52,178 nucleotides of DNA from Candidatus Parvarchaeota archaeon (GCA_030615175.1 JAUWZX010000003.1:1-52178); one strand, 5' to 3'. Counted from the first letter of the stretch, positions 16,101 to 33,376 are shown. Notes: generated from the sequence alone by a model not told the origin. Numbers and translations: made by a program.

Positions 16101-19084
16101 GTAGTATTCACTGGTTGATAACTTAGATTAATGTTGCCAATGCTTTGAATCCAAGAAGTATTAGTGAAGCTAATCGTGGTATTATAATTGAATGGACTCT
16201 TAGAAGTGCTTGAAATATTACCATAAGTGGTTCCGTAATAATTAGGTAACTCCAAGTAAGCATTAACACTCCAATAGTGAGTGCCGTTAGGGAAGCAAGC
16301 CCAGTACTTAGGCGTGACTCCGAAATCATTAGGAATATTAGATTCCCATGTCCACGTCTCAGAAATATTTAATTGATTATTAGTATCACTTATGGCACTT
16401 GAGTATAATCCCCAAACTTCTTCACTAGTTAAAGGCCTGTCATAGATTCTTACATCATCAATAGTGCCATTAAGACCGGACCATATATCCCCACCACGCT
16501 TATACGCACCAATACTAAGAACATCAATTGGGTCAGTAGCACTTAGTAAAACATCAAACCATTTAGTCTTATTAATTGCACTCCCAGAAATATTTATCTC
16601 CATCTCAATTCCATTAAGATATACTTTTGGTGCTATACCATCATGCACTACTATTATGTGAGTCCAATTAGATATTTGGATTTTATTTGAAAAATCACGT
16701 AAACTAATAGTCCAGAATGAGATAACACTATCAGCACTCAAGTCAATAAGAAGATTGTCAATAGTTTGTTGGAATAACATTCTAAAACGAGTATTTTTTG
16801 CAATGGCATTCCTTCCAAAAGCTAAGTAAGATTGGGATGATGAACCAGAAACATTAGTTAATTTAGCCCATAATGAAACTGTTCCAGTAGTATCATCAGC
16901 GAATTCTGCTAAACTGGTAGTGTAAGCGTATTGACTGCCATTTAAACTTCCTATACTTCCATTAAAGTATACAGCGTTACCAAACCTCCCTGAAACCCAA
17001 GCATCATCAGTGGTGTTAGCCAATGTAAAGTTATTAAGATTAGAACCCGAATCATAAGCAGTGCTTCCTGAAGTTTCATCTAGTCGCCAGTAATTCTGAT
17101 AATCATTAACTTCACCAACATTACTCCTATCTATTGACTCTAAAGGTTTAAGACTCAAGTTAGCGAAAGTCTCTGCAAAGCTTGCATCTTGTGTTACGTT
17201 CCAAAAAGTCGCTGAATCATCACCATCAAGGGTGTCAGGAAGTCCATCTGTGTCGACTTTAATCCAGTCTATATGTAAAGAAATATTAATAGTATCAACA
17301 TTCGCTATTATACTTATAGCATTACTTTCTGAAGTATCAGGCACATAAGTTGGATTGCTTGTTGAATTACAAGCACCCACAAAAATCCCATCAACGTACC
17401 AATTAGCATAAGTATCATTTTCCCACATTAAAGTAATGTTGTGCCATCTGTTAAGCCAGTCATTATCTACTGTGCCATCCTCAATCGTATCAAGGTAAGT
17501 TCCTGCTAAACCATCAATTAATCCACCCTGTGCCGAACTATTAAAACATCTTCCTTGAACATAACCATCACCCGCTGCTCCCGCATACGTGAAAATAATA
17601 AAGTTAGTGTAAGGGGGAGCACCACCAGGAAGTCCAACCGAGAGTGTTGCATCATAACCTTGATTTGAATAATTAACGAAATTAACTCGCCAAGTCACAT
17701 TAAAATGGGTGCTTCTATTAACGTAAATTGAGAGTATATCACCAGTTGACATATTACTTGTGCCATCACCTAAGTCAGCAATAATTGGGCTGCCAGTCCA
17801 TAAATCAGAATTATATAAATCACCGAAATCATCATAAGTTGACTGAATCATTTGGCTTGAATCATAAGAGGTACGTTCTCCAGTAAAATTCTTATCAGTA
17901 TTAGTGCTCGTGTCAATATCCATTAAAACACCCTTAATGGCAGTTCTCGTTAATTCATCATCATAATTATATATGTCCTGATGAGTATCTGCGGAGTAGC
18001 CCTCTGTTCTATTTTTTGTTGTGAACCCTTGAATTAAAGTAACATTACCCCCATATGATACTTGAGTAGCAATACTTGAAGGATAAAATGTTTGACGAGG
18101 AACTTCGATAGTGTAATTAGATACTGTACGATTACTGAAATAAACGTATTCTAACCAATCGCCTGGTTGATACCATATTGCAACATAAAAAACTGTCCCA
18201 ATACCGGTTACTAATTTAAAATCTTGAATCCAAAAAGAGTTTCCAGTAGATATTGTGTAATTAACTAGCGTGTAATTATTTGTTTCAACATCACTATAAT
18301 TAACTTGTATTATTGTTTTATCAATCGTGTCTTCCATTATCTTAATATTATTCCATCCCTGTTGAGTAGTTGTGCCACCACCCGCCCAATTCACAACATC
18401 ATACAACTTTGTTATCCTTGAGTAATCACTCAAACTATTATTATAAGCCCATATCTCTTGAAAAGTTCCATTAGTTAATACGAGATTAATTAATCCATTA
18501 CTAATATTATACTGCGTTGTCGTATTAGAGATGACCACTATTGATTGATCGCCAATTCTTAGTTTTGCTTTACTAGGATTAATAACATTTAATATTATTG
18601 ATTCTCCATCGAAGGCGTTAACTTCGCTCTTAGCATCAATTAAACCCGCACCCTCATCAAGGCTTGTAATACTGACTTTACTGCTTAAGCTATTGCCAAT
18701 CTTGCTTAATTCAGCGTTAATATCATCAAGAGAATATTGAAAGTCCTTATAAGTAGTGGTGATGATTGGGTTCTTAGTGTCTTCAACCATTATACAATTC
18801 TTACCTATTGGGCTACCATTATCATCAAAAACATCATGACACTCCTCCCTTAATGGGTAAGTAATCACTTCAACTTCCTTAATATAATACTTAGGCACTA
18901 ACTGGAATTCATTGATTCCCTTAGTTACCCTATCAGGCTTAATAACGTCAAAATAAGAGAAAGGGCCATCATGCTGAATCACATGCCAAGCCAAGTATTC
19001 GCCAGTGGTTAAATCAAGACCTGCAAAGGATAAGCTAATTGAAATTAAAGTTATTAAGCCCAGAATAAGTAATTTATTATTCAT
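13118..19084 (-). CDS. giant surface protein (about 1988 aa) with LamG/concanavalin domains
   Basis: Likely start MNNKLLILG (signal peptide) at 19084 rather than 19213; YWRLDE...GTIDDVRIYDRPL LamG motif; hydrophobic C-terminus. Confidence 0.85.
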   Translation of the reverse strand: MNNKLLILGLITLISISLSFAGLDLTTGEYLAWHVIQHDGPFSYFDVIKPDRVTKGINEFQLVPKYYIKEVEVITYPLREECHDVFDDNGSPIGKNCIMVEDTKNPIITTTYKDFQYSLDDINAELSKIGNSLSSKVSITSLDEGAGLIDAKSEVNAFDGESIILNVINPSKAKLRIGDQSIVVISNTTTQYNISNGLINLVLTNGTFQEIWAYNNSLSDYSRITKLYDVVNWAGGGTTTQQGWNNIKIMEDTIDKTIIQVNYSDVETNNYTLVNYTISTGNSFWIQDFKLVTGIGTVFYVAIWYQPGDWLEYVYFSNRTVSNYTIEVPRQTFYPSSIATQVSYGGNVTLIQGFTTKNRTEGYSADTHQDIYNYDDELTRTAIKGVLMDIDTSTNTDKNFTGERTSYDSSQMIQSTYDDFGDLYNSDLWTGSPIIADLGDGTSNMSTGDILSIYVNRSTHFNVTWRVNFVNYSNQGYDATLSVGLPGGAPPYTNFIIFTYAGAAGDGYVQGRCFNSSAQGGLIDGLAGTYLDTIEDGTVDNDWLNRWHNITLMWENDTYANWYVDGIFVGACNSTSNPTYVPDTSESNAISIIANVDTINISLHIDWIKVDTDGLPDTLDGDDSATFWNVTQDASFAETFANLSLKPLESIDRSNVGEVNDYQNYWRLDETSGSTAYDSGSNLNNFTLANTTDDAWVSGRFGNAVYFNGSIGSLNGSQYAYTTSLAEFADDTTGTVSLWAKLTNVSGSSSQSYLAFGRNAIAKNTRFRMLFQQTIDNLLIDLSADSVISFWTISLRDFSNKIQISNWTHIIVVHDGIAPKVYLNGIEMEINISGSAINKTKWFDVLLSATDPIDVLSIGAYKRGGDIWSGLNGTIDDVRIYDRPLTSEEVWGLYSSAISDTNNQLNISETWTWESNIPNDFGVTPKYWACFPNGTHYWSVNAYLELPNYYGTTYGNISSTSKSPFNYNTTISFTNTSWIQSIGNINLSYQPVNTTITLTSDYELNLSIVNWEITPFKGGYGNFTYGNLRVPGTSWNSGQNTTVAACYYDWINETVHNWAENATYSHNLTHQGIKRKVNGTNTGRDFTDVNFSVSLPVNETVCDYCTDTMNVNVGDFEWNASDTGDWINETIQAWEENNSYSHNLSSQGLLRLINGTNPDYNFTDVNWTVSLPTNETVCDYCTDLRGFYIGDFAFNASDTGDWINETIHNWEENKSYQQNMTHQGIVRLVNGTANYNFTDVPWEVSLLYGEAVCDYCTGTRNINNTFEWNASDTGDWLTETTGTDWQQYVTETTYAGGLAWIHGKGRASNSLNISFTNVAYNNTSASAMCRSGWTCTITGIQYIPSIPASGTGTDDTREVVSNKTNVITKKPEIQAQNLTIIVGPRARFEAKINGTNTDTLVGYDNVNVTFTEIPAEAVMESGNGTSVLFDVVASGTYIAVTNYTMPAVNEIIGSLVLGAIEINKEVNYSRQVFWDNTAAITYYNVTGQLTIPTSTNPSTINITTDTEVITPQEVNASERYFKWNKSSMTAGQEIGFNVTYNTTAPNITTSFIVNLTHYTKYVNLSGPVEPIYANVKVYTSVNESIVIPYLYKKISGVWIDVTTNKNYNVLKEDTNGNGRTDRITWYEPSLNQSSEFYITALVGDPILTQCKNEARNWENCSLSVAGDCPKQHIRTKIGVSEAVYWKYECRFYNPNIVTRSITDKFRISPEATNILYDEVGEELLWDLYGPYISIEDENIQPRSYNHHNITFYTPPVFAELAYHYQEEFYVNELADVNITIRLTNYASENITVDIYKDIRIGYGEEIKLLDEDNKTITDYGLEQGTLSVNLGTILAGETKDFRLNYKTPTATYNLPRPAYKLRFNNTEFNVQEAEVTSIAYVPLTELLWEYEEKDCNLVDYVAKVNEYTERLIIDVNTIEFTCEEIDEVETLVITLGVLDVGESIKIKIYKRAVITPITIPGLEEMSKAIIDFFTNIWMFFWQLIIGIF
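15263..15940 (-). repeat. three intragenic 74-76 aa repeats
   Basis: DWINET...NLTHQG...CDYCT...NASDTG units at spacings of 228, 228 and 222 nt. Confidence 0.85.
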
Positions 19085-19206
19085 TAATTCATAAATTAAA
19101 CACTCATAGTATTTAATTGTTACTTTCAACGCCAAAACCCCATCTCCTCTCTCGTTAATAACGATTGGAAATGTATAAATATTATCACGAACTTCAAAAA
19201 ACTCAA

Positions 19207-20067
19207 ATGGCATTCAAAAAAGGGAACATTCCATGGAATAAAGACAAGCCTCATACTGAAGTAACTAAGAAGAAACTGAGGGAGAACCATTGGACAAAAA
19301 ATGAAAAGATTAAAGATGATGTAATGCAAAGGATGATTAAAAGCAAGAATGAATTTTATAAAACAGATAAAGGAAAGAAATTAAAAAAATCCCTTAGTGA
19401 ATTAAATAAAGGAGAAAATAATCCACATTATGGCAAACCACGTTCTGAAAAAACAAAGGAAAAAATAAGTAAAGCAAACAGTGGTGAAAATAATGGAATG
19501 TATGGGAAAAAACCGTGGAATAAGAATAAGAAATGGCCAGAGATAAAAGAATGGCTTGGCGAATACGAATTTAAAAAAGGTAATAAATCTTGGAATGATG
19601 GATTATCTATGGCAATAGATGAAAGAGTTAAAAATAATGTAGAAAGTATGAAGAAAACTAGGAATACTAAAAAATGGAAAGAAACAGCTGGAAAAGAAAT
19701 GGGGCTGAAAATAAGTAAAGCGAACAGTGGCGAAAATGGCCCTAACTGGCAAGGAGGGATTTCTTTTGAGCCTTATGGCCCTGAATTTAATAAAAGATTA
19801 AAGCAGAAGATTAAAGAAAGAGATGATTATACTTGCCAGTTATGTGGTAATAGAATTTTAGTATTTTCTAAGAAAAGACATCTTACAGTCCATCATATCA
19901 ATTATAATAAAAAGGATTCAAAAGATAAAAATTTAATTACATTATGTAATTTCTGTAATATTTCAGTTAATAAGGATAGAGAAGATTGGACTAATTACTT
20001 TCAAGAGAAGATTAATCAAATTATTAGTGCTAATGCAGATGTTGGAGCAATAAATGATATTGTGTAG
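19207..20067 (+). CDS. free-standing homing endonuclease (NUMOD3-like repeats plus HNH)
   Basis: FKKGNIPWNK, SEKTKEKISKA, GENN.YGK repeats; RDDYTCQLCG...VHHINY...NLITLCNFC; likely ATG at 19207. Confidence 0.85.
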   Translation: MAFKKGNIPWNKDKPHTEVTKKKLRENHWTKNEKIKDDVMQRMIKSKNEFYKTDKGKKLKKSLSELNKGENNPHYGKPRSEKTKEKISKANSGENNGMYGKKPWNKNKKWPEIKEWLGEYEFKKGNKSWNDGLSMAIDERVKNNVESMKKTRNTKKWKETAGKEMGLKISKANSGENGPNWQGGISFEPYGPEFNKRLKQKIKERDDYTCQLCGNRILVFSKKRHLTVHHINYNKKDSKDKNLITLCNFCNISVNKDREDWTNYFQEKINQIISANADVGAINDIV

Positions 20068-20840
20068 TGAGTGAATAATAAGTAATCGTATATGAAATGT
20101 GCAACTACTGCTGGTATGGTACTATATTCTAGGAATTCTAGTTTTGTTCCTTTAAGCATGAAACCTAACATGCCGGGCATGATAAAAATCATACCTAACA
20201 TATAGGCCATTACGTAACTTTGTATGGGTAAACTTTGGGCGACTGTGTAACTTCCGAAGTGCGATAAACTCCATATAATGCTACCGACTAGTAAGCCTAC
20301 CACTAGTAGTGTTAGTTTATCTCTTGTCTTCATTGGTCCTGCAAACCTGTTTGCAAATACGTCTCCTGCAAATTTCCTCATTATTTCCTCAGAGAAGGCT
20401 ACCATGATGAAATAGATAGCTCCCGCCAGCATGCTTAGTTCAGGCATTAAGGCCATATCTAGTACTACTGCGGTATAAAAAAGGTATCCTAGTGGTAGTG
20501 GTAGGAGGCCTAGTGTTACTGCTAGTGGTTTTGCGAATAGGAAGTATACTCCGAATCCTACTCCAGCGCCCATGGCTACATATACTATATACATCCATTT
20601 GTGTTTTCCAACATCAAAACCAAGAACGTCAAGCCATTGATCGATAGGTACTACAGATGCTAGTATGATGAAAATTGGAAGAATGATTGTAACCATGAAG
20701 AACACGATTACGTTTGTGGCTGTTGCGAAAACTAAGTCAGTGATTACTGTTGCAATAACTAAGAAAATCAGCACCCCAATTGTCCAGAGGGGTAGTTTTG
20801 GGATTTCAGTAACCATGTCCCTTGCGATTCTTTCTACCAT
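20016..20840 (-). CDS. CPBP (CAAX/Abi) intramembrane protease
   Basis: Multi-TM; EEIMR, WSLSH and AHFIYD motifs. Confidence 0.75.
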   Translation of the reverse strand: MVERIARDMVTEIPKLPLWTIGVLIFLVIATVITDLVFATATNVIVFFMVTIILPIFIILASVVPIDQWLDVLGFDVGKHKWMYIVYVAMGAGVGFGVYFLFAKPLAVTLGLLPLPLGYLFYTAVVLDMALMPELSMLAGAIYFIMVAFSEEIMRKFAGDVFANRFAGPMKTRDKLTLLVVGLLVGSIIWSLSHFGSYTVAQSLPIQSYVMAYMLGMIFIMPGMLGFMLKGTKLEFLEYSTIPAVVAHFIYDYLLFTHYTISFIAPTSALALII

Positions 20841-20881
20841 TATGTTATTATTTTAGTATTTCTAAGTATTTTAAATTAATG

Positions 20882-20960
20882 GTAGTTGGTTGAGAGTATG
20901 AAAGGTGCACTATCACGCCCTCCACGTGTCGCCATCGTGGAACTCTCAACCGAACACTAC
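20882..20960. ncRNA. candidate structured intergenic RNA element (three-way junction)
   Basis: GGTTGAGAGT 20888-97 pairs with ACTCTCAACC 20942-51; inner TCCACG/CGTGGA; GC-rich in an AT-rich spacer. Confidence 0.4.
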
Positions 20961-21073
20961 AGTTTGGGATTTTTAATAACAACACACGGACAAGGAGCAT
21001 CGTTATCAATTATTATACTCATTAATGATATTTAAACGTTATTAAAAAATAAATAAGTAAAAAGAATTAAAGT

Positions 21074-21424
21074 TTAGATTTCTATGCTCTTATGTAGTCT
21101 CTTGCTGGCTCCGTACGCTACTGCCGTTACTAATGAGACTATTGCTGACGTTAGCGTGTAATGTATTAGTGCCATGAAGAATACTATTATTGCTGATGGC
21201 ACTCCTGTCGTCATCATTTCAGCTATTGTCGTGGCTTCTGCTGTTCCCGTTAGTAGTCCTGTTACTGCTGACATTATTGGTTCTATCAGGAATATTGCTA
21301 GTGTGCCAATCACGAGTCCCGCTATTAAGCCTAGTATTCCTGCTACCAGCATCATCTCTTTAAGGTCTTCTCTTAAGTCTTTTGCCGCTAAGAACGCTGC
21401 TATCCCGATTATTATTGTTAACAT
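21074..21424 (-). CDS. small multi-pass membrane protein
   Basis: Three hydrophobic segments. Confidence 0.7.
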   Translation of the reverse strand: MLTIIIGIAAFLAAKDLREDLKEMMLVAGILGLIAGLVIGTLAIFLIEPIMSAVTGLLTGTAEATTIAEMMTTGVPSAIIVFFMALIHYTLTSAIVSLVTAVAYGASKRLHKSIEI

Positions 21425-21431
21425 TTTTTAT

Positions 21432-22793
21432 TCACTTCCGTCTCCTCACCAATGCGTAAGTTATTAGGCCTATTATGGCAAGGATTATGATGATGATTAT
21501 GATGAACGTGGTTGTTGTTATGCACGTGCCGAGTATGTTTATTTCTCCTTCAGTGCATGCTGTTGGGTTATCATCTACACAATTTGTTATTGGGTAGTGG
21601 TAGCATAATTCGCCTACGCATTCATCTGTCGTGCATGCGTCACTGTCATCGCAGTCAGAGTTAGTTCTGCATTCAGGCGTGGGTTCTATGCACTTAATGC
21701 TTATTGAGTCGCATCCGTAAGGGCATGCTTTTCTTTGATAATTGCATTGTGGCACTCCACTAATTACTGTGCATTCACCGTTAATTAATAAGTAGTATCC
21801 TTCTGCGCTACACTTGTCTGGGCATTGCATTCCGTCGCATGGGTTCGGGCAGTCACTTGGACAGGTTAAGTAGTTCTCATCTGCCTCGCAATCACCATTA
21901 CCACATTCAGTTATCGTGCAGTAAGGTATGTCTTCAAGAGTGCAGGTTCCCCATCTGCATATGTATCTCTTGCATCCTACTTCGCCTGAGCATGTGCTGT
22001 GTACGCCTTCTAGTGGCGTGTAAACGCATTCGCAGGTGGCGTAGTTTACTGTTTCATAGGTGCATGGGTTCCCGTCATCGCATCCGCTTGGTGTTTTAGT
22101 GCATACTGGTGCCGGGCAGTCTGCTGGGCAGTTTTCATAGGTTTCTCCTTCCCCGCATATTCCGTTATCGCAGTATTCTACTGGCGTTATGCATGTTGGC
22201 ATGGCTCTACAGTATTCTATCATTAGATCACATTCTTCTGGGCATGTTCGTGATATGTAAATTTCGTCTAAGCCGCACATTTTTTCTGCGCAGGTGCCTA
22301 GAACCCAGTCCGAGCATAAGCAGTCAATGTCGCAGTAGTATAATTCCAAGTGTTTTACTTCAGTATAGCGTGTGATGTAAGCTTCTCCTGGAACTAAGAA
22401 AATTTCTTCTTCGAAGTAGTAGTTTTCATCGAATACGACTAGGGCGCATCCTCCCCTGACTGTTGATGGGCAAGTAATTATTTTTCTGTCGTAGGGTGGA
22501 ATTGATCCCCATTCTTCAGGGAAGTCACTGCATAGGAATCCTCCAACGACTGTTAGTGGGAATACTCTGGTCCATGTTAGAGTGTCTTCTATGTACTTGC
22601 CGAAGCATGTGACGTGTGGCACCCCATCCTTTATTTCGTAGTGTTCTCTTATCGTGCAACCGCCTGATAGTACTGGTCTAGTGACTGCTTTAATCACGAA
22701 GTACCCTACCATTAATGACGCTATGAGTATTAATGTTGTGAATATTACTTTTCCTCTGGTGGTTTTAAGCCATTTTGGTATTTCTATTTTCAT
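21432..22793 (-). CDS. cysteine-rich membrane-anchored protein
   Basis: N- and C-terminal TM helices; CxNGxCExxE...CPxDC and CDDxxxCT repeats. Confidence 0.8.
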   Translation of the reverse strand: MKIEIPKWLKTTRGKVIFTTLILIASLMVGYFVIKAVTRPVLSGGCTIREHYEIKDGVPHVTCFGKYIEDTLTWTRVFPLTVVGGFLCSDFPEEWGSIPPYDRKIITCPSTVRGGCALVVFDENYYFEEEIFLVPGEAYITRYTEVKHLELYYCDIDCLCSDWVLGTCAEKMCGLDEIYISRTCPEECDLMIEYCRAMPTCITPVEYCDNGICGEGETYENCPADCPAPVCTKTPSGCDDGNPCTYETVNYATCECVYTPLEGVHSTCSGEVGCKRYICRWGTCTLEDIPYCTITECGNGDCEADENYLTCPSDCPNPCDGMQCPDKCSAEGYYLLINGECTVISGVPQCNYQRKACPYGCDSISIKCIEPTPECRTNSDCDDSDACTTDECVGELCYHYPITNCVDDNPTACTEGEINILGTCITTTTFIIIIIIILAIIGLITYALVRRRK

Positions 22794-22921
22794 TTATGTA
22801 ATCCTCCTTGTTCTATTATGTGTGTCGTAATTAATAAGTTTTCCATGTTTTTTACGTGCCGGGAGGGGAGTCCAATATCCGGAGGAGATGGGTATTAAGG
22901 ACTTGCTTTTTAAGTATGATT

Positions 22922-24799
22922 TCATTTACGGCCTCCTTTCCTAGCTTCTTTTATTTCTTGCCATATTATGTACCCTATTCCGAATGCTGTTGATGGGCCA
23001 ATAATCCATAATATTATTCCGAATCCTCCTGTTCCTATTAATCCTAGGATGATTATTAATAGCCAGTTAGTGAGTACGAACCATACAACGTATCCCGCTA
23101 GTGCACCCACTAAGGCTCCGATGATGTATCCTTCAACTCCTAGTTTTGATAGCCTGCCAATTAGTAATGCAATTATTGAACCAATGATTATTGCTAATAT
23201 TATCTCGTTAGGTATTGGTGTCCTGCTACTGCACACTCCGTTAATATCTGTTAGTCCTGGACAGCAGGCCTTGAATATTGTTGGGGTTTCACCATCTTGA
23301 GCGCAAGCGATTACTCTGCTCTTGCAGTATGCTTCTCCTGTTTCCCTGTAACCGCATACCTCGTCTGGCTCGCATATATCTACTAGGTCATCTGCGCTTC
23401 CGAATGGATTGCATTTATAAACCTCGTTTCCCACGCATACCCACCTGTTTGCTTGGCATACTCCTAATGGATTGCATTTTGCGGTGAATGTTCTTGAGTC
23501 TGTTCCGCCTACTGATGAGGCCGTTACCGTGCAGGTTTGCTCTGCGTAAGCTATGGTATCGCAGTATATTGGCAGGTTGAATGTGTAATCCATTCCAGGG
23601 TCTATTGTTTGTGATTGAGTTGCTCCGGCCCTGAATGGTTTTGGACAGGTTATGTAAGCGTCAAAGCCTTCTCTTTCATCGCCTATGTTCTTAACTATTG
23701 CTTTAACTTTTGCTTCTTCTTCACCTGAAATCATTGTGTCCATGTAAGCGCTTGTTACTTGTGGCACTCCTATTGGCTGGTATATTCCTAGCCAGTCCGC
23801 TCTTACGTAGAATATGTATGTTGGGATGCTTATGAAAGTGCTTAATTCTCTTATTACTACTCCCTCTGTTAGGCTTGCTGGGCTTTCAATGCCCCCAAAT
23901 GGTATTGGAGTCATTGCAGTATCCGCTGCCGTGTTAGTGCCATCGTAGGATTCTTGTATTCCCGCCCTGGTTATTGGTAATTCACCAATCTTCCCTATTA
24001 GTACATCGTATTTAGTTAAGTGATCTCTGTAGAAGTCATCGCTTATTATTCTCCAGTTGCCATCATAGGCTGATTTGTATGGGTCTTGGCTTGTGCAAGT
24101 TTCAGCTGTTGGTTTATAACCATCCCATTTAACGTAAACGTTATCCCTGAAGTCACCGTATGGCCCAACGTAGCCTCTTATGTCTGCATGAGTGTCGAAG
24201 TCTTTGCTGAATGTTTCAACGCCATTAGTGACGCTGATTGTTGACATCGTGTGTATTTGAGGGCTGTCAATGCTTCCTACTGGGTAATAAGTTATTTCTT
24301 CTATGCAGAAGCATGCTAGTTCAAGGTAGTATTTTCCTTGACCTATTAAGAATCCACTCACGCAGTGTTGTAGTGCTTCTTCTGTTGAAGGCACCCATCC
24401 GCAAAGCCATTCAACTTTGTTTAATTTAGTTATTGGCCTCCTAACTCTTTCTTTAAATATTATTGGGTATTCGCAGGTTTGCCGGCCGTAAGTAATATCT
24501 ATTTTGAAGTCTCTTTCCGCTGGTATTCCTGTTTCTTCATCTATCTCTGTTGAAGTAACGGTTCCAGTGGCGTATTGACTCATTCCTCCTTGACTAACGT
24601 ATAGTATCCATTGCTTGCCTGTGAAGAATGGGCTTGTTGAAACGAAATCAGCTTTGGTTAAGCTTAGTGTTGTGAATCCTGAATAACTTGATAGTAGTGA
24701 TGTGAAAGCGAATCTGGCTGGCGTAAAAATAATCATTAATGATACTGAAGCAACTAATGCTACTAGAATTAATACTTTACTCCTCTTCGTAATTATCAT
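22922..24799 (-). CDS. fsx1: archaeal fusexin (Fsx1/HAP2-like membrane fusogen)
   Basis: Colinear motifs matching Fsx1 as I recall it (TSPFFTG, VKWDG, NWRI, SLTEG..IPTYIFYVRA, PIGVPQV, VKNIGD, EVYKC..G..C..DE); three C-terminal TM helices. Confidence 0.75.
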   Translation of the reverse strand: MIITKRSKVLILVALVASVSLMIIFTPARFAFTSLLSSYSGFTTLSLTKADFVSTSPFFTGKQWILYVSQGGMSQYATGTVTSTEIDEETGIPAERDFKIDITYGRQTCEYPIIFKERVRRPITKLNKVEWLCGWVPSTEEALQHCVSGFLIGQGKYYLELACFCIEEITYYPVGSIDSPQIHTMSTISVTNGVETFSKDFDTHADIRGYVGPYGDFRDNVYVKWDGYKPTAETCTSQDPYKSAYDGNWRIISDDFYRDHLTKYDVLIGKIGELPITRAGIQESYDGTNTAADTAMTPIPFGGIESPASLTEGVVIRELSTFISIPTYIFYVRADWLGIYQPIGVPQVTSAYMDTMISGEEEAKVKAIVKNIGDEREGFDAYITCPKPFRAGATQSQTIDPGMDYTFNLPIYCDTIAYAEQTCTVTASSVGGTDSRTFTAKCNPLGVCQANRWVCVGNEVYKCNPFGSADDLVDICEPDEVCGYRETGEAYCKSRVIACAQDGETPTIFKACCPGLTDINGVCSSRTPIPNEIILAIIIGSIIALLIGRLSKLGVEGYIIGALVGALAGYVVWFVLTNWLLIIILGLIGTGGFGIILWIIGPSTAFGIGYIIWQEIKEARKGGRK

Positions 24800-24896
24800 T
24801 ACTCACACCTATTTGGTTCTCTTCATGTTCTTGTGTGCTTGGTCATTTTATTAAAAAAAAAATAAAAAAAATAATAAAATTTTATTCAAATCTTGT

Positions 24897-25550
24897 TTAT
24901 GTCTTCTGTCCGACTATAATGTCTGCTTCAATGTCTGCAACGTCGCCAGTAGTCTTTCCTTCTATCTTAACTTTGTAGATTGCTGCTGGTGTAACATTAT
25001 GGTTAGCTGCTAGGTCTGTTGACTTAATTTCTATGTCAAGTATGTACTTGCCTCTTTCTATTGGAAGATCGTATGACACGTCTAGTTCTCCGTCTTCTAT
25101 GTCATCACTAAAGTCTGTTAGTTTGTCGCATTCCCTGTACTCGTATAACTTGACTGAAGTAAGCGTTAGGTTAGTTACTATGGTTCCTGCCACTTCATCA
25201 ATTGTTATGTCACTTAATGCTTCCATGTCGCCTCCATCAATTTCAAAGTATAATGGAGCTTTCTTGAACTGACTGTTACCAGTGAAGTTTGTCATTGTAC
25301 CGTTTCCAGTCCACTTGTCATTTGTCGTGTCTTCCCTGAATGCTTGTGATTCAATGTCTTCTGCGAAGCATTCTTCCGTGGTTGTTAAGAACGCTACTGC
25401 GTCAAATTCTCCGTCGTACTCAACTGGAACTACTGGTATTACTGCTGCTATTGCTGCTGATACTCCCCATATTGCTAGTACAATTCCTAGTATTGCTGCG
25501 ACTGCGATAAACAAGACCGCCCACACATTTATTGCTGCTTTCCTATTCAT
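24897..25550 (-). CDS. acidic secreted or structural protein with pilin-like N-terminus
   Basis: MNRKA followed by a long hydrophobic helix; own promoter region and downstream T-rich terminator. Confidence 0.65.
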   Translation of the reverse strand: MNRKAAINVWAVLFIAVAAILGIVLAIWGVSAAIAAVIPVVPVEYDGEFDAVAFLTTTEECFAEDIESQAFREDTTNDKWTGNGTMTNFTGNSQFKKAPLYFEIDGGDMEALSDITIDEVAGTIVTNLTLTSVKLYEYRECDKLTDFSDDIEDGELDVSYDLPIERGKYILDIEIKSTDLAANHNVTPAAIYKVKIEGKTTGDVADIEADIIVGQKT

Positions 25551-25691
25551 TTTTAATTCACTTTTTTCTCCTAATTTTTAAAGTGCCCTCCCGGCACTTT
25601 ATTTAAAGGGTTTGACATTTTAGTAAATGTCGTAGTATTCTGGATGGTTTAGGGGTTTATAAATGGTTAGAAGGAGTAAACTTGTTTTTAG

Positions 25692-26327
25692 TTACTTGCC
25701 AGTAGTGGCTTTCTTATAGTTTTTATAGGATGTTATAAATGCGATGGTAATCATTACCGTTGTTATCAAACTGGTTGTGAAAGGGAATTGTTCAGTAATA
25801 TTCAACAACATGTTAGTAAACTCGAAAATAGTTAATGGAATAATAACTATTAAAGCAATGATTGTTGAGAATAAAGTTAGTAATTGAGGGTTGCTCTGCT
25901 GAGAATTATTTTGTGGTTTATTCTTTAAGTCACTTATCTCCTTCCTTACTTGCTTTATTTCCTTAACTATCTTCTTACTTGACTCTTCTGGCGTGTAACT
26001 CTTAGTCTCCTTTGCTAGTGGGAAGTAGAATACTGTTCTTAAATCCTTATTCTTGATTAATTCCTTAATGCTGTCTGGAGCGTCTTCAAGTTTCATGTCA
26101 TGAGATGTCTTCTTCTCTATTAATCCATGCTTAAGCATTGTATTAAGTATTCTTGAAATCTTTGTTTCATTAATGTTCAAGTCCTGAGCAAGTACTTTAC
26201 GATAATGGTTGCCCTTACTAATTGAATTCCAAACCCCGTAATAATTGCCTTTAAGTGAATACTTATCCTTATCAGGATTAATAACATAAGTTACCGCTAT
26301 TCCTCCTCCATCAGTTAACTCCTTCAT
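25692..26327 (-). CDS. wHTH protein with two C-terminal TM helices
   Basis: LAQDLNINETKISRILNTMLKHGLIEK; hydrophobic C-terminus. Confidence 0.65.
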   Translation of the reverse strand: MKELTDGGGIAVTYVINPDKDKYSLKGNYYGVWNSISKGNHYRKVLAQDLNINETKISRILNTMLKHGLIEKKTSHDMKLEDAPDSIKELIKNKDLRTVFYFPLAKETKSYTPEESSKKIVKEIKQVRKEISDLKNKPQNNSQQSNPQLLTLFSTIIALIVIIPLTIFEFTNMLLNITEQFPFTTSLITTVMITIAFITSYKNYKKATTGK

Positions 26328-26340
26328 TACACCAAACCCT

Positions 26341-26724
26341 TTACGTCAAGCTTACATTAATTTCTTGCGGTATCATTAATGGCATGACTAAACCGAAAAA
26401 TAATAATAAACCAAATATTAAGATTAAAAATGGTATGACCCACTTCCTAAAGAAATTAGTAAATCTTTCAGAACCCTTCAATATTAATGAAATGAATCCA
26501 ATGAATAATATTAACTGAAGAACTGACATGGCTGAATTCATAAATAACTTTGCTTGGTCTGGGAATGTTGGAGTAATAATGCTAGTAATCCATGATGATA
26601 AACCCCAAGACATGCCCCATGAATAACTGAAGAATCCCACAATCTGATTAAATATTGCTTGCCCTGACTCAACACCAGTCAAGTTACCAGTTAAGTTAGT
26701 AAGAGTCTCATTCAATTCATTCAT
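26341..26724 (-). CDS. membrane protein
   Basis: Hydrophobic segments; ATGA overlap. Confidence 0.7.
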   Translation of the reverse strand: MNELNETLTNLTGNLTGVESGQAIFNQIVGFFSYSWGMSWGLSSWITSIITPTFPDQAKLFMNSAMSVLQLILFIGFISLILKGSERFTNFFRKWVIPFLILIFGLLLFFGLVMPLMIPQEINVSLT

Positions 26725-27239
26725 CCCCCTGCCGTTGCGTTAACTGTTTGAGTAATGATTAAGCCTGAAAGATTTAATGACATCATTAAAACTAAACCCA
26801 TACAGATTAAGAATATTGACGTAATGAGATTGGACCAGTACCTAGAGCGACGTATCAGCGTCATTACTTTCTGAAATCCTTTATTAAGATAATCCCAAAT
26901 AATAAAAATACTCAACCCAATTAGCATGGGGAAGAAAAATAACGCTAAATGATTAATCAATAACGGTATTGGGGTATGTGTTGCTACAAAGTTTAAAATC
27001 CAAAGCGCATAAGAAATTATTACTGGAACTGGGAAAACACTTAATGATTTTTTAATTGAAGGGGTTAATTCCGTGAGGGGTGACAAGATAAAAAGCGAGA
27101 CAGTTGAACTAACGAATAAAGCAGTAAACTGCGCAGGAGCAAAAAAACCAAAATAAGTCAACACGAATCCTAAGAAATAAACTGTGAAAAGTGATAATGG
27201 ATAATTTTTAACAATTTCACTAATGTCAAGCTCTACCAT
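26721..27239 (-). CDS. multi-pass membrane protein
   Basis: About five hydrophobic segments. Confidence 0.7.
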   Translation of the reverse strand: MVELDISEIVKNYPLSLFTVYFLGFVLTYFGFFAPAQFTALFVSSTVSLFILSPLTELTPSIKKSLSVFPVPVIISYALWILNFVATHTPIPLLINHLALFFFPMLIGLSIFIIWDYLNKGFQKVMTLIRRSRYWSNLITSIFLICMGLVLMMSLNLSGLIITQTVNATAGG

Positions 27240-27252
27240 ATTGAATCATTTA

Positions 27253-27825
27253 TTAAGCATCCGTTACATTTAAGTTTTCCTCTAAATCATTAAATCCATA
27301 AAATGTTTCGTTAATGCAGTCTTCGCAATGTCCTATTTGCACTATTCCTGTTTTAAAGGCCTCATCCAGATTACAAAACTTCTTAGCTTGCGAAATATTG
27401 AACTCAAAGAATAATGCCTCATTCAAGGGGTATGGCCAAATTACTTTTATTGCTCCAGTTTGGCAATCGTAAGAGTATCCGCTACCTTTAAATCCGTAAA
27501 GTTCCCCTATTGCAAGGGTTCTTGCAAATAAAACTCTTTTATGAGTTCTTACACCCTCATTTTGGTCTGCGCAGTTAAAGAGTCCACGAACCACGGAGTA
27601 CTCTGTTTTAACTAGTTTCCTTACATATATTATCTCGCAGTTGCCTAGTGATTGAACCATTGGCGTTCTTACGCCAATTACTTTCTCTGAATAACCATTA
27701 TTCCAACCTGTTGAGTATGTGAAGTTAATTATTAATATCACACAAATTATTGTTAAGATTACTGGGATTATGAAATACTTATTTTCATTAATCCACTCGC
27801 TAACCTGATTCCTCTTCTCAGTCAT
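27253..27825 (-). CDS. N-terminally anchored membrane protein
   Basis: Single TM helix; ATG at 27825 preceded by AGGGTTTGG. Confidence 0.65.
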   Translation of the reverse strand: MTEKRNQVSEWINENKYFIIPVILTIICVILIINFTYSTGWNNGYSEKVIGVRTPMVQSLGNCEIIYVRKLVKTEYSVVRGLFNCADQNEGVRTHKRVLFARTLAIGELYGFKGSGYSYDCQTGAIKVIWPYPLNEALFFEFNISQAKKFCNLDEAFKTGIVQIGHCEDCINETFYGFNDLEENLNVTDA

Positions 27826-27880
27826 TGCCAAACCCTTTCCTTATTTTAATGCGTTATTAGTATAAAAGAGTTACTCTTCC

Positions 27881-28402
27881 CTATTTTATTACTTCAATTT
27901 CGAATCTGCCGTAGCGAGGCCTGTCATCACCAATGCCTTTGAACCTGCCCGCACTTTTTAGTATTTCTAGTGCGACTTCAATGTCAAGATTAGGGTCTAT
28001 TGAAGTTAGCTCGAACTCGGCGCTCCAGTTATCAAAGCGTGGTCTCCACCTTAATATCCTGCTCCTCTGTATTACTACTGCCGCCTCATCAATCTCGTAT
28101 TTCTGTGGATTTATCTTTATCTCTTGCGGTTCAATGAAGCATGCTGCCTTAATGATTTCCTTATAAGACTTCTTCCCTTCATACTTGAAGTCAACTGCTG
28201 CCTTTATCATCGCTGCTTCTACTTGCCTTGCCGGTATGTAAAGCATTCCTTCTTTATTCCTGTACGCTGCTTTCTCCGCTTCCTCTTTAGGGTCATAAGT
28301 TTTCTTTTTCTTCTTAGTTCCTTTCTGATCTTCCATTACGAACCTATGCTGTAAGTAAGGCCTTAAACCTTTTATTCTCACTTTAATTCTCTGTTCCTGC
28401 AT
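27881..28402 (-). CDS. stand-alone Cas7/RAMP-like protein
   Basis: N-terminal strand IKVRIKGLRPYLQH, LYIPARQVEAAM, RPRFDNWSAEFEL, C-terminal glycine loop AGRFKGIGDDRPRYGRF; no other cas genes or CRISPR array. Confidence 0.8.
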   Translation of the reverse strand: MQEQRIKVRIKGLRPYLQHRFVMEDQKGTKKKKKTYDPKEEAEKAAYRNKEGMLYIPARQVEAAMIKAAVDFKYEGKKSYKEIIKAACFIEPQEIKINPQKYEIDEAAVVIQRSRILRWRPRFDNWSAEFELTSIDPNLDIEVALEILKSAGRFKGIGDDRPRYGRFEIEVIK

Positions 28403-28706
28403 CACGTATTACCTCCCTTATTTCATTAATGCATTCTTGAGTGTTATTCTCAACTTGCTTGCTAGGGAATCTTATTACTTTGTACCCTAACTTCTTTAAA
28501 GCATAATCCCTACGTCTGTCTTTAATTAATCTTTTACCTCGATGCCAGTGCTCGCCATCAACTTCAATGTCGATTAATAATCCTCGAATCTTGAAATCAA
28601 GGATTAACTTACTAGGCACTGGATATTGTTCAATGGCATCAATCCCTGCTTCCTTCATAGCCTTCTTTAAAACCCTCTCAGGCTTAGTTAAATACCTGCC
28701 CCTCAT
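28383..28706 (-). CDS. DUF559/Vsr-like endonuclease
   Basis: EQY...LDF...IEVDGEHWH...DRRRD..L...GYKVIRF. Confidence 0.85.
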   Translation of the reverse strand: MRGRYLTKPERVLKKAMKEAGIDAIEQYPVPSKLILDFKIRGLLIDIEVDGEHWHRGKRLIKDRRRDYALKKLGYKVIRFPSKQVENNTQECINEIREVIRDAGTEN

Positions 28707-28720
28707 CTTTTATCACTTAT

Positions 28721-28996
28721 TTACCAGTTCACGAACTCGTCTTTTTCTTCTTTGTCTATTTCTTCTTTTAATGTTTCCATGTGGGTTTCTAATACTGGTT
28801 TTGGACCATAAGCCATCATTCTTCCTTCAACGAATTCAAAGTCTGGTTCTCCTGTGTCTGCGAAGAAGTTTCCAACAAAGCTAACATTCCCTTCGTGTTT
28901 TTTAACCCATTTACTAATGGCATTCATCATATCTTTCAATTCTTTACTGTGTTTTTGTTCTTTCTCAGTTCCGTTTTCTTTAGTTTTTTCACTCAT
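28721..28996 (-). CDS. hypothetical protein in the RAMP operon
   Basis: Tightly packed between the small regulator and DUF559. Confidence 0.7.
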   Translation of the reverse strand: MSEKTKENGTEKEQKHSKELKDMMNAISKWVKKHEGNVSFVGNFFADTGEPDFEFVEGRMMAYGPKPVLETHMETLKEEIDKEEKDEFVNW

Positions 28997-29000
28997 TTCA

Positions 29001-29120
29001 TTATTCCTCCTTTTTACAGTCCGCTATTTCTAGTATGAATTCACGCCATGTTCTTTCCCCTTTCTTCTTTTTTAGGCATTTGAATTCCTTATCCGTGAAT
29101 ATTTCATTAACAGTTCTCAT
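29001..29120 (-). CDS. small ribbon-helix-helix-like regulator (39 aa)
   Basis: MRTVNEIFTDKEFKCLKKKKGERTWREFILE; ATG about 25 nt after TTTATAAA, so probably leaderless. Confidence 0.55.
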   Translation of the reverse strand: MRTVNEIFTDKEFKCLKKKKGERTWREFILEIADCKKEE

Positions 29121-29145
29121 TACTTTCTTTCTAAGAATGAAAGAG

Positions 29146-29190
29146 TTTATAAATCTTTCTACTCCCCACAGAATAATAAAGTATTTAAAT
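29146..29190. promoter_or_regulatory. back-to-back archaeal TATA promoters
   Basis: TTTATAAA 29146-53 is spaced for the minus-strand ATG at 29120; TATTTAAAT 29182-90 is spaced for a plus-strand start near 29213. Confidence 0.6.
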
Positions 29191-29212
29191 AATAAAATAA
29201 CCATTAAGTAAT

Positions 29213-29341
29213 GGGTTGAAAAACCCTCTATGAGTTATGTTATGTTGAGGTATGTTACATTGAGTCGAGTTGGGAATGTGTTACGTTGAGTTTGGTTGTG
29301 TTAAGTTGAGGAAAAGTTAGGAGGGGCATCCCTCCTGACTT
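29213..29341 (+). ncRNA. putative guide-like RNA: 5' GAAA hairpin, (GTT-NN) pentamer array, 3' hairpin
   Basis: GGGTT-GAAA-AACCC; 11 exact GTT among 15 slots at 5-nt period; AAGTTAGGAGGG-GCAT-CCCTCCTGACTT. Confidence 0.75.
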
Positions 29342-29528
29342 AAATAATTAAAAATGTAAGGGGGTTACTCCTCACTTTTCTGACATTCTTATTATTAGTC
29401 TAGTTGGATCTGGATTTTCAATTATTATTTTCCGCCCTGTTTCTTTTTCAACACACATAGTCCGGCCCATTTCGTCAATATCAGTTATCGTGCATTCCAA
29501 AATTTTATCTTCCATTCGCTTTAACCTC

Positions 29529-31121
29529 CTATACTTTTTTTGATATATAATAGTATATTCCTGCAAAGAATAATATGATTGCTATTAGTGTGATTGCTTG
29601 GAATAGGATTAGTGGTGGCGCTGGTATGTAATGAATTTCTGTTTCCTTTTTCTTAGTGACTTTCTTAATTGTTACTAATTCCCTGATTGTTTCCCTGACT
29701 TCGAAGATGCCTGTTATTGAGTCGCTGCTTGCACTGTTATTCTTTGATGTTATGTTGAAGTTGTAAACGCCTACGTAAACTAGTGTGTCCGTGTTGATTG
29801 AGTGGCTGGTTCTTGATCCTGTGATGATGTTCGTGTCATCGTAGCTTATTAAGTTATTCCATACTCTGATTCTAGTGTCGGCTAGGAAGTTAGTGTCCCA
29901 TGTGAATGTGTTGTACTCTCCTCCTAGTATGTAGGTTGAGTATGTGCTGTTCTCTATTTCTACAGCATATATTCTAGTGTAGTAAGTGGTGATGTTGTAT
30001 AGTTCTGGGCTTCCATTGTCAGTGTAGAAGTCTGCTCTGTACTGGAAGTATCTATTATTACTGACTGTTAAGTTCTGTGGTGCTTTAATATATGTTTCAT
30101 TCCATGAGTCTCCAGTGCAGGTTGCGTCGTCGCAACTCCTGACTGTCAGGTTTAGTTTCATTATTCCTCTTTCATACAGGTTTAGTGCTTCTGTTGCGGT
30201 TAATTGCCTGTTGAATAATGCGAATTCATCTATTGTTCCGTTAAAGCTTCTTAAACCGTCGCCTCTTGAGCCTATCATGTAGTCTTCGGCTGCGTCTGAC
30301 AGTCTTGCACCGATTGGTGCTTGTACTTGTGGTATTGACCTACTCGCACCGTTCAAGTATAAGTGCGGGCTATTTAGTATTGAGCTACTATTGTAATCTA
30401 TTACTATATGGGTCCACTCGTTTAAGGGTATTATTAATCCAGTAGTCCATATTCCTGCTTGAGTGAAGAAGTACCTGACGAATGATAATTTAACGTGGGT
30501 TCCATTATCCTCTCTGACGTATAATATGCTGTAACCGTCTTTATCCATTATTCTGCCCGTGTCTGATTCCCCGTCACTCCCTGGGTATATCCATACGCTT
30601 AGGGTTGCGAATTCAATCCATACGTCGTCTAGCGTGGCATTGCTTTTTAAATTAATGTAGTCGCCGTCTCCATCAAAGTCTAGTGCAGTGTTTAATTTGC
30701 CTGTGGCGTTGTAGGTTACGTCGCCTCCGGTTGTTCCATTGTTTCCTTCACCTGAGTAATCAATTATTACCCCGCTTGCTTCGTTCAGGTGCATTAGTAA
30801 TACATTATCTGACATGTTCATCGGGTTAACTATGTAGTCCTCGCTTGACTTATTGTGCGGTAATTCGTAGCCGTAGCCACTCCACCACGTAATATTATTC
30901 CATTTTGATGTACCGCTTGAATCTAACACCTTGCTCGTGTAATTGCCTGAACTATAAGATAAGTTTAATTGAACTGCCCTTAGAGTGTCATTGAAGAAGG
31001 TGTTATTATATATCCCTTCATTAAAGGCCGATTCATTATTCACTTGCCAGATTGAGTCTGCATGAGCAATAGTTATGATTAATAATGAAGTAATTACTGT
31101 TAGTATTGATTTCTTATTCAT
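29529..31121 (-). CDS. LamG-domain surface protein with C-terminal TM helix
   Basis: Signal peptide; LDFDGDGDYI...TLSVWI...WTHIV...FNGTIDEFALFNRQLT. Confidence 0.85.
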   Translation of the reverse strand: MNKKSILTVITSLLIITIAHADSIWQVNNESAFNEGIYNNTFFNDTLRAVQLNLSYSSGNYTSKVLDSSGTSKWNNITWWSGYGYELPHNKSSEDYIVNPMNMSDNVLLMHLNEASGVIIDYSGEGNNGTTGGDVTYNATGKLNTALDFDGDGDYINLKSNATLDDVWIEFATLSVWIYPGSDGESDTGRIMDKDGYSILYVREDNGTHVKLSFVRYFFTQAGIWTTGLIIPLNEWTHIVIDYNSSSILNSPHLYLNGASRSIPQVQAPIGARLSDAAEDYMIGSRGDGLRSFNGTIDEFALFNRQLTATEALNLYERGIMKLNLTVRSCDDATCTGDSWNETYIKAPQNLTVSNNRYFQYRADFYTDNGSPELYNITTYYTRIYAVEIENSTYSTYILGGEYNTFTWDTNFLADTRIRVWNNLISYDDTNIITGSRTSHSINTDTLVYVGVYNFNITSKNNSASSDSITGIFEVRETIRELVTIKKVTKKKETEIHYIPAPPLILFQAITLIAIILFFAGIYYYISKKV

Positions 31122-32320
31122 TATTTCTTTCTTACTCTTTTATAGTATATTAATATTCCTGAACCTGAGATTAGTATTATCGCCACGAATGCTATCATTA
31201 ATAATAGTGTTGGAGGTAGTATTGGTGGTGCTTCGTAATTACATAATCCGCTAGTGATGTTGCAGCCTTGCTCGCATGGTTCTTGGAAGTAATAGATTAT
31301 TTCACCAGTCATTGAATTGCATCTGCCACTGTAATAATACGTTGAGTCCTCGCATTTTGTGCCTGCGAATTTTATTGGAGTGTTAATGCATGCTAAGTTT
31401 GGATCACATGAGTCCCTAGTGCATAAGTTATTGTCATCGCAATTAACTTGTTGGAAGGTTATTTCTCCTGTGGTTGGATTGCAGGTTGGGTTGTAATTAT
31501 ACATTAAGTTGTCGCAGTAGGGTATTCCTGCTTCATCTATTAGTGTGTAAGTGCATGATGTTCCTACGCATTTATCAATGGTGCAGGGGTTATTGTCTTC
31601 GCATTTAGCGTCAGTATATGATATTTTTTGGGAGTCTGGATTACAGTATGTTTCAGTTCTTAGTATTGTGTTGCTTGCGCAGTAAGATGTTAATGTTATT
31701 CCTACGCAGAGGTCTGGGCAGTCGCTTGGGCAGGTAGAGTATACTTCTCCTGCCTCGCATATTCCATTACCGCAACAGGGTGTTACTGTTATGCATCCTT
31801 TAATGTCATCGCATTCCTCGCAGATTCCACAATCTTGTGTTGACCAATAACTGCATCCCCAATTTATTTTATCATAATAAGGATCAGTGTACCAGTGTGG
31901 ATAATGTTTTCTCGTTAAGTATCCATAATTATCGCATATTGGATTATAGTAGAATTTATTGTTGTAACAGAAGGTTGGGCAGTCAACGTCTTTGCAAGGA
32001 TTAACGCATTTACCATACTCGCACACAACCTCTATTACTCCCCACTCACCTGCGGGTTCCCACTCGCAACTGAATCCGCCTAAGTACTCTTGCCCTGGAC
32101 TCCAGTCGTAAGTGAAGTACGCTTCCACTGCCGCTCCAGTGTCAGCGTCAGGCCAGCATCTTCCAGTGTACCTCGTTATTGTTATTCCTTGTTCTTGAAT
32201 GACTGCTAATGGAATGGGCCTTAACGCTAGTAAGTAAATGATTAATATTGCTACTGGCACGACTATTGCCACAGTTATTAATGCTTTCTGCCTAGTAGTT
32301 AATTTCATCTCATTAATCAC
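31121..32320 (-). CDS. cysteine-rich membrane-anchored protein, paralogous in style to 21432-22793
   Basis: CGNGICEAGE..TCPSDC, CEDNNPCTIDKC, CDDNNLCTRDSC; TM helices at both ends. Confidence 0.8.
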   Translation of the reverse strand: MINEMKLTTRQKALITVAIVVPVAILIIYLLALRPIPLAVIQEQGITITRYTGRCWPDADTGAAVEAYFTYDWSPGQEYLGGFSCEWEPAGEWGVIEVVCEYGKCVNPCKDVDCPTFCYNNKFYYNPICDNYGYLTRKHYPHWYTDPYYDKINWGCSYWSTQDCGICEECDDIKGCITVTPCCGNGICEAGEVYSTCPSDCPDLCVGITLTSYCASNTILRTETYCNPDSQKISYTDAKCEDNNPCTIDKCVGTSCTYTLIDEAGIPYCDNLMYNYNPTCNPTTGEITFQQVNCDDNNLCTRDSCDPNLACINTPIKFAGTKCEDSTYYYSGRCNSMTGEIIYYFQEPCEQGCNITSGLCNYEAPPILPPTLLLMIAFVAIILISGSGILIYYKRVRKK

Positions 32321-32714: not shown

Positions 32715-32756
32715 TACTCTAATTATCTAGTGCTTTGAAGAATTTATAATTTTTGG

Positions 32757-32975: not shown

Positions 32976-32977
32976 TA

Positions 32978-33364: not shown

Positions 33365-33376
33365 TAAATTAATCCT

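Follow-up and report, generated by a model that had tools for sequence, protein, structure and literature searches.

A fusexin 1 homologue on an integrase-free archaeal contig that may be an autonomous, virus-like element

Fusexin 1 (Fsx1) was reported by Moi et al. (2022) on elements integrated in haloarchaeal genomes, for which a conjugation-like transfer was proposed (PMC9259645). In that paper, Fsx1 fused BHK cells only when it was present on both membranes. Genes for MCM, Orc1/Cdc6, primase, HerA, LamG and CAAX proteases appear in its tables for the integrated haloarchaeal regions, and its metagenomic table already includes relatives with motifs of the Fsx1 studied here. The same authors cautioned that fusexin assignments in metagenome-assembled genomes (MAGs) may be wrong, and stated that nothing then pointed to fusexins in viruses of archaea; such evidence would favour a virus-first origin of HAP2 (PMC9259645). 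More recently, a 2026 meeting report summarized a talk by F. Rey on an Fsx1-bearing integrated dsDNA provirus, which is carried in budding vesicles and passes by membrane fusion (PMC13712861, brief account). We found no report of a free Fsx1 replicon in the literature searched, in which subscription journals are scarcely covered.

The window analysed here, the whole stretch of 52,178 nucleotides, is a complete contig (C4) of G000, a bin of 1.0 Mb in five contigs. The protein family is known, and the free-standing form is the less described part. We lean towards reading C4 as an archaeal element, complete or nearly so, that is autonomous and has no integrase. It would in effect be an enveloped virus without a capsid, or a replicon borne in vesicles, and it may be linear and enter by fusion. 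Family, fold, gene content, separation from the chromosome and repeats come from this analysis; for fusion activity and vesicle transfer we rely on publications about other elements.

1..52178, whole element, contig C4 of bin G000; of 70 listed genes, 67 lie on the minus strand and 22 have predicted transmembrane (TM) segments
22922..24799, minus strand, Fsx1 homologue, ORF of 625 aa with no internal stops (profile match to 7P4L and AlphaFold model)
aa 9-27 of Fsx1, N-terminal hydrophobic segment (hydropathy)
aa ~40-340, domains I/II; ~342-445, Ig-like domain III; ~446-495, Cys-rich domain IV (limits placed from the 7P4L alignment and the predicted model)
aa 499-523, extra 4-Cys module, before TM1
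aa 533-551, 559-577 and 582-600, TM helices (hydropathy)

The 625-aa ORF with an N-terminal segment and three C-terminal TM helices, as given in the original prediction, agrees with the coordinates and the hydropathy, and its assignment to Fsx1 was borne out by HMM and structure comparison. A profile built from 145 of the best 150 homologues matched Fusexin1 (7P4L) in the PDB with an E-value of 5.8e-64 over residues 12-497, and reached five HAP2 sequences with E-values between 5e-5 and 5e-3. A single-sequence phmmer search of the PDB with the same ORF gave no match, and the ORF alone gave a sub-threshold Pfam match to HAP2-GCS1 on domain III (E 0.003). The NCBIfam Fsx1 model NF053506 matched aa 46-572 at E 3.4e-18 with 65.4 bits, short of its equivalog cut-off of 650. 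Judged by these alignments, the protein is a distant member or subfamily of the Fsx1 family. With the AlphaFold model (pLDDT 88.1, pTM 0.71), Foldseek returned 7p4l first (E 4.6e-29, TM 0.71 by target, ~16% structural identity), followed by HAP2, EFF-1 and viral class II proteins (bunyavirus Gc). The class II domain I/II/III fold, on which the prediction was staked, is present in this model.

Like 7P4L, the protein has domains I-IV, three C-terminal TM helices and aligned counterparts of all eight ectodomain cysteines (146, 165, 385, 423, 448, 463, 476 and 492). C385/C423, C448/C463, C476 and C492, aligned to 7P4L cysteines, are kept in 135-144 of the 145 rows; by alignment, the cysteines of the domain III disulfide and of domain IV's pair of C-terminal disulfides are conserved, the bonds themselves being predicted. 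The VKNIGDERE motif falls within Ig-like domain III, where it had been placed, with N371 the one invariant column among the 145 aligned homologues, and the small Cys-rich domain proposed earlier corresponds to domain IV, whose cysteines align with those of 7P4L. Unlike 7P4L, the protein carries additional cysteines, among them a C109/C235 pair seen across the family and the 4-Cys module before TM1, and its ectodomain charge is about -24, compared with the -67 quoted in the published description of Fsx1. The three C-terminal TM helices are not family-wide, as 38 of 151 homologues score three and 63 score one. Residues 156-161, a candidate apolar fusion loop at the domain II tip, align with the loop of Fsx1, positions 157 and 161 being hydrophobic in 86% and 70% of rows, and a second apolar loop falls at 133-135.

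Among 1.84 billion representatives, Fsx1 relatives form 528 clusters (50% identity) at E <= 0.001 and 110 at E <= 1e-30. In a tree of 54 homologues, without 7P4L or host labels, P0001 groups with P0002-P0005 and L094 (support 0.89). The Fsx1 profile at E <= 1e-12 matches 5 of 401 genomes of the class, G000 among them, and three of 401 genomes match in a sample of the phylum. Matches in nine of 60 relatives (E 6e-7 to 8e-4 over at most 100 positions) were rejected as Ig-domain or TM noise. From 111 pattern matches, 14 metagenome loci were confirmed; the larger ones are of the same style, with single-strand runs of membrane and Cys-rich genes, and little homology is detectable beyond fsx1 and TnpB. 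A pairing by eye of AEP-like, CPBP-like and ATPase neighbours between loci was not upheld by BLAST. Another Fsx1 element (L114:5145-5420, L089:11239-12168) carries the chromatin protein Alba (PF01918 above cut-off) beside a P-loop ATPase, possibly a genome-condensing module. Scans of IMG/VR for Fsx1 gave no confirmed relative (0/20, 0/15, no match and 0/18 candidates); of the 151 known homologues, no more than 25 and no more than 62 are caught by the two hand-made patterns, so this is not proof of absence. An IMG/VR scan for related elements by Cdc6 gave 0/6, named GTDB contigs gave 0/20 and 0/51 for Fsx1, and GenBank phages and PLSDB plasmids gave no Fsx1 match.

One class relative carries a much smaller version. 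In G234, a single contig of 829 kb, fsx1 lies in an insert of ~12.7 kb between host genes (L186:5747-18450, equal to G234:C1 765747-778450), together with a tyrosine integrase, a D5 primase-helicase and a few membrane genes. Its fusexin has 764 aa and an extra peptidase-M64-like segment, and the insert is flanked by an AT-rich direct repeat of 15 bp, perhaps a chance occurrence. This insert is a compact provirus-like Fsx1 element, far smaller than the published ones. An integrated element beside a tRNA-Ala was also seen in L194-L195 (G383:C5 14410-30000), with an integrase, a serine recombinase and a D5-like helicase; the G383 match was rejected as a full fusexin, being a 222-aa protein that corresponds only to the C-terminal part, with Fsx1-like domains III-IV plus one TM.

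The assembly sets C4 apart from the rest of its bin. All eight ends of the other four contigs share exactly 141 nt with a partner end, whereas the ends of C4 share none. These four contigs end at de Bruijn branch points, with one repeat bridged by a 22-nt overlap and the other apparently one duplicated membrane gene, and from the assembly graph they probably close into a chromosome without room for C4. Blastn of C4 against the other contigs gave no match. The tetranucleotide correlation is 0.34 for C4 versus 0.95-0.98 for 13 of 13 host windows, and CGCG, which the other contigs do not avoid, is missing from C4 (0 observed, 35 expected); depletion of AGCT and partial depletion of GATC are common to both. 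C4 is not integrated in the G000 chromosome. Since its composition is foreign, its host is uncertain, and C4 may belong to another organism. The primase of the G000 organism itself is a PriS-PriL fusion, and the organism's class relatives measure 0.5-1.6 Mb; on these grounds we take it to be of DPANN type.

5..14, plus strand, left arm of a 10-bp terminal inverted repeat
52169..52178, minus strand, right arm of the same repeat

Both ends of C4 lie in apparently non-coding DNA and carry this repeat, which occurs once per orientation in the whole bin. It was noticed after the fact, and null counts of 17/200,000 and 99/200,000 give an empirical chance of 1e-4 to 5e-4. C4 has no terminal direct repeat, no tRNA and no housekeeping gene at either end; no CRISPR array was found in the bin, and an Rfam search returned no family. 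The simplest reading of the ends is a complete linear molecule. Searches for a telomere resolvase (ResT/TelK, PF16684), a protein-primed polymerase (PF03175) and Hjc (PF01870) gave no matches, although divergent enzymes could escape them. Near the left end, at 211-280 of the window, two tandem AAGTATAA-N13-TTATAC inverted repeats lie upstream of the only plus-strand regulator (MarR-like, 426-752) and are candidate operators.

44023..45390, minus strand, Orc1/Cdc6 initiator, 455 aa, Walker A and B intact (TIGR02928)
779..1642, minus strand, MCM-type helicase, AAA+ core only, 287 aa (PF00493, E 8e-18)
36721..37239, minus strand, small AEP-like ORF (PF24387, E 1.6e-4, below cut-off)
51436..52080, plus strand, candidate origin in the terminal, probably non-coding kilobase: three TTGAAC arrays with 9-nt spacing (51445-51463, 51991-52000, 52051-52069)
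45456..45479, minus strand, three further TTGAAC copies with 9-nt spacing, directly upstream of a TATA-like box before cdc6; candidate autoregulation site

The replication genes named in the original prediction fared unevenly. Cdc6 is clear (202.8 bits against a cut-off of 181.3). The MCM match holds, but only for an AAA+ core, which is much shorter than the 777-aa MCM of the Altiarchaeum virus that it matches, and the AEP match is weak. Neither a polymerase nor a resolvase was found on C4 in Pfam, PHROGs, NCBIfam and six-frame searches. TTGAAC pairs number seven in C4, five of them in the last 730 bp and two just before the cdc6 promoter; pairs with the 9-nt spacing were found 0 times in 963 kb of other contigs and 0 times in 100 shuffles. 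This layout suggests an iteron origin with an autoregulated initiator.

33627..35339, minus strand, HerA-like ATPase, winged-helix repeats at its C terminus; candidate DNA pump
47984..48823, minus strand, P-loop ATPase, Zot/AAA-like
24897..25550, minus strand, N-anchored protein, probable Ig-like beta-sandwich, directly upstream of fsx1
21432..22793, minus strand, Cys-rich type I membrane protein, 48 Cys, directly downstream of fsx1
31121-32320, paralogue of the Cys-rich protein
20016..20840, minus strand, multi-TM protein with an EE..R / H motif; no Pfam match for the ORF
13118..19213, minus strand, LamG surface protein, 2031 aa, 91 sequons; candidate adhesin
29529..31121, minus strand, LamG type I membrane protein, 530 aa; candidate adhesin
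6514..12318, minus strand, further surface proteins (599 aa, 713 aa and a 4-TM protein), split by TnpB at 8461-9579 (plus strand)

Read along the coding strand, a block of small genes together with Cdc6, ATPases and methyltransferases is followed by a surface and membrane block around fsx1, and the MCM core comes last. That it lacks an integrase, as predicted, holds for the whole bin in six frames: PF00589 (tyrosine recombinase) gave 0 matches at E <= 0.1, with a positive control in 14 of 14 genomes, and PF00239 (serine recombinase) gave 0 matches. The bin as a whole has neither XerA/tyrosine recombinase nor Hjc, though its chromosome graph appears closed; 5 of 5 other genomes tested have PF00589. 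The expected lack of a capsid also stood, with no HK97 capsid or portal among 68 ORFs (PHROGs) and 71 ORFs (Pfam). The lack of a terminase is complicated by phrog_2666 ("terminase large subunit"), which matches the HerA-like ORF (E 7e-22) and the ATPase at 47984-48823 (E 6e-5); Pfam and NCBIfam assign the HerA-like ORF to HerA/DUF87. Four of the five top Atlas rows for the second ATPase are clusters that are 77-94% viral, and one is 91% archaeal. Both ATPases belong to superfamilies related to VirB4 / TraG-VirD4, and no VirB4, relaxase or coupling protein scored above cut-off, with one short sub-threshold match on the HerA ORF (E 7.6e-4).

Beside fsx1, the Ig-like protein has a model of pLDDT 55 with a best Z of 8.4 to adhesin-type domains, which is not above background, and it has no usable match in the Atlas. 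The model is of poor quality and does not resemble a capsid protein. No matrix protein was identified on C4. The N-terminal part of the Cys-rich protein at 21432-22793 has no homologue among 50 candidates. The EE..R / H motif of the multi-TM protein presumably resembles that of CPBP (Rce1) proteases, and PF02517 matches an fsx1 neighbour in L104. C4 also holds inserted selfish genes, namely the TnpB, which has no TnpA beside it, a NUMOD3-HNH endonuclease and an endonuclease-VII-like ORF that carries repeats at its N terminus (other spans 19165-20067, plus strand, and 3395-4399, minus strand), as well as an R2K-clade ATP-grasp protein, a sub-threshold methanogenesis-marker-9-like Cys domain and a membrane-anchored transglutaminase-like protein (46042-46794, 40295-40630, 12527-13072). 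A PD-(D/E)xK resolvase picked by eye (ORF 47018-47395) was dropped, with nothing in the PDB or PF01870. Within 43611-44018 (minus strand), judged by its motif to be a gene for an N4/N6 DNA methyltransferase that is apparently truncated, a stop-containing hairpin of 30 nt (43893-43922, minus strand) lies between codons for PPY and WGLRDYG; the two pieces have no Pfam match. With its flanks, the hairpin folds as a 3-nt bulge, 4-bp helix and 2-nt bulge (z -1.3, not significant), and it is a candidate for an intron of the archaeal bulge-helix-bulge type within a protein gene.

27881..28405, minus strand, Vipr protein, RAMP fold (PDB 36PP, E 1.6e-13, aa 8-173)
29229..29345, plus strand, candidate vrRNA, ~15 GTT/GGT-NN pentamers with one 1-nt slip, followed by a 12-bp hairpin

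C4 also appears to encode a VIPR system. Such systems are defined by 9-16 GGY/NN repeats and a structured tail, "a related consensus" being allowed beside GGY, and 56% of the loci are proviral, 14.8% viral and 3.8% on plasmids, according to the preprint (bioRxiv 10.64898/2026.04.26.720920). The locus here resembles them in its Vipr homologue and its pentamer array with a 3' hairpin; it differs in that the consensus is mostly GTT rather than GGY and that the array lies ~830 bp upstream on the opposite strand. The array is the only such locus in C4, with 0 in 10 shuffles and one weak site in C1, and no target was found for it in 3.0 Mb searched. A gene for a DUF559 nuclease (28383-28706), which could play an accessory part, overlaps the start of vipr. 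By analogy with the systems in the preprint, this one would probably silence a competing element.

In the mechanism we propose, Cdc6 would bind the 9-nt-spaced iterons and open an origin near one end, and would recruit the host's replisome along with a helicase, either the element's own or a host one. The element's glycosylated LamG/Ig and Cys-rich surface proteins, together with Fsx1, would fill a patch of the host's membrane, and DNA would be loaded into budding vesicles, perhaps by the HerA-like or Zot-like ATPase. The LamG adhesins may then dock on a recipient cell, where Fsx1 would refold to the class II post-fusion trimer, merging the membranes and delivering the DNA.

Several lines of evidence point this way. 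An autonomous element is suggested by the assembly graph, by the missing tyrosine and serine recombinases, and by the iterons and the terminal inverted repeat, while the layout of 67 of 70 genes on one strand is virus-like. Also in favour are the mostly proviral or viral setting of VIPR loci and the vesicle transfer summarized for an Fsx1-type element (PMC13712861). An episomal element or enveloped virus had been suggested because Cdc6, MCM and AEP genes lie nearby; that conclusion is probably right, but its reason is weak, since the tabulated integrated Fsx1 elements carry the same genes, which do not prove an episome (PMC9259645). The graph, recombinase searches and repeats support it better. 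The enveloped-virus idea is also less new than was assumed, having been reported for an integrated element (PMC13712861). The iteron-like repeats at one end and before cdc6, the 10-bp terminal inverted repeat and the VIPR system go beyond the original prediction. Some observations count against this preferred reading: the TM share of 22/70 hardly exceeds the 27% seen among 776 ORFs of the host contigs, fsx1 neighbours in other loci mostly have no detectable homology to those here, neither a matrix nor a capsid protein was identified, the IMG/VR scans brought up no Fsx1, and no end-replication enzyme was found for a linear form. The integrated G234 element, with its integrase, counts against it as well.

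The requirement for Fsx1 on both membranes in the published BHK assays suits cell-cell fusion better than entry into a naive cell (PMC9259645). C4 could be a plasmid-like replicon that forms no free particles and spreads by mating, through cytoplasmic bridges or Fsx1-mediated fusion of cells; if the setting is DPANN, this might take place where symbiont and host touch. The conjugation-like model, the plasmid logic of iterons with Cdc6 and the lack of an identified structural virion protein on C4 fit this proposal. We nevertheless consider it improbable, as no VirB4, relaxase or coupling-protein family scored above cut-off among the scanned ORFs, a related element reportedly moves in vesicles (PMC13712861), and Vipr is rare on plasmids in the preprint's survey (10.64898/2026.04.26.720920). 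With a similarly small probability, C4 was misbinned and is a fragment of another organism's Fsx1 element, one that is larger or integrated (a provirus) and has its integrase beyond the contig. This would account for the foreign composition, including the absent CGCG, and agrees with the likely misassignment of MAG fusexins and the sizes above 50 kb given for published Fsx1 elements (PMC9259645), as well as with the integrated form in G234 of the same class. Against it stand the apparently non-coding ends with their shared inverted repeat, and the lack of a tRNA or of a housekeeping gene at the ends. Misbinning itself is compatible with an autonomous element.

The topology is a separate question from the mode of transfer. 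In a circular form of the same element, the two arms would together make a single palindrome, either divergent TATA boxes or a site of recombination, where the assembly happened to stop. Both arms indeed read as inward-pointing TATA-like boxes, no telomere enzyme was found, and Cdc6/MCM replicons are usually circular. However, there is no terminal direct repeat, although this assembly leaves 141-nt shared ends elsewhere, and a graph with k=141 would be expected to pass through a hairpin of 10 bp. A circle is a fair possibility, though on balance not a likely one. We regard as rather unlikely the fullest version of the virus-like reading, in which C4 is a whole dsDNA virus, linear, enveloped and without a capsid, that never integrates and infects a DPANN archaeon or a non-halophilic one occurring alongside, with entry by a HAP2-type class II fusogen and ends replicated by an unrecognised mechanism. 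It would be one of a large unclassified group (the 528 fusexin clusters) missed by viral catalogues, with relatives down to the 12.7-kb provirus.

Our preferred reading, an autonomous element in effect equivalent to a capsid-less enveloped virus, would place a free, integrase-less Fsx1 replicon outside the haloarchaea. Together with the compact provirus of G234, a single-contig DPANN-class genome, it would broaden the grounds for assigning the fusexins of archaea to viruses or virus-like elements and not to cells. If linear, C4 also poses the question of how its ends are replicated. The weight of this is lowered by the family being published, by the vesicle-virus mechanism already being outlined for an integrated element (PMC13712861), and by host and topology being provisional; the replication genes beside fsx1 are not new either, as they are listed for integrated elements (PMC9259645).

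Compared with the haloarchaeal Fsx1 elements (PMC9259645), C4 is alike in its size of ~50 kb or more, its foreign k-mers and its HerA, Cdc6, MCM, LamG and CAAX-protease-type genes. It differs in having no XerC/D integrase, no VirB4/VirD4 above cut-off and no place in a chromosome, and in its 35% GC, iterons and terminal inverted repeat. With the provirus of the Rey talk it shares a class II fusogen on a mobile element, the absence of a conventional capsid among the genes found on C4 and the mechanism proposed here, whereas that element is integrated in its host genome (PMC13712861). The pR1SE/apHPV plasmids are likewise Cdc6- or MCM-type replicons with many membrane proteins; they spread cell-free in vesicles, as proposed for C4, and the text on them mentions no fusexin and uses the word "fusion" 0 times (PMC10818511). 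Their core comprises ORF6-9, 17, 21 and 23-25. Against 100 of the 163 kb of pR1SE2, only Cdc6 and TnpB of C4 match. Caudoviricetes differ from C4, which has no HK97 capsid or portal match and whose "terminase" PHROG match sits on the HerA-like ORF. Pleolipoviruses are capsid-less enveloped archaeal viruses that enter by fusion, as proposed for C4, and have much smaller genomes. No PHROGs match on C4 names a pleolipovirus-type fusogen, and the pleolipovirus fusogen has another fold, as noted by Moi et al. (PMC9259645).
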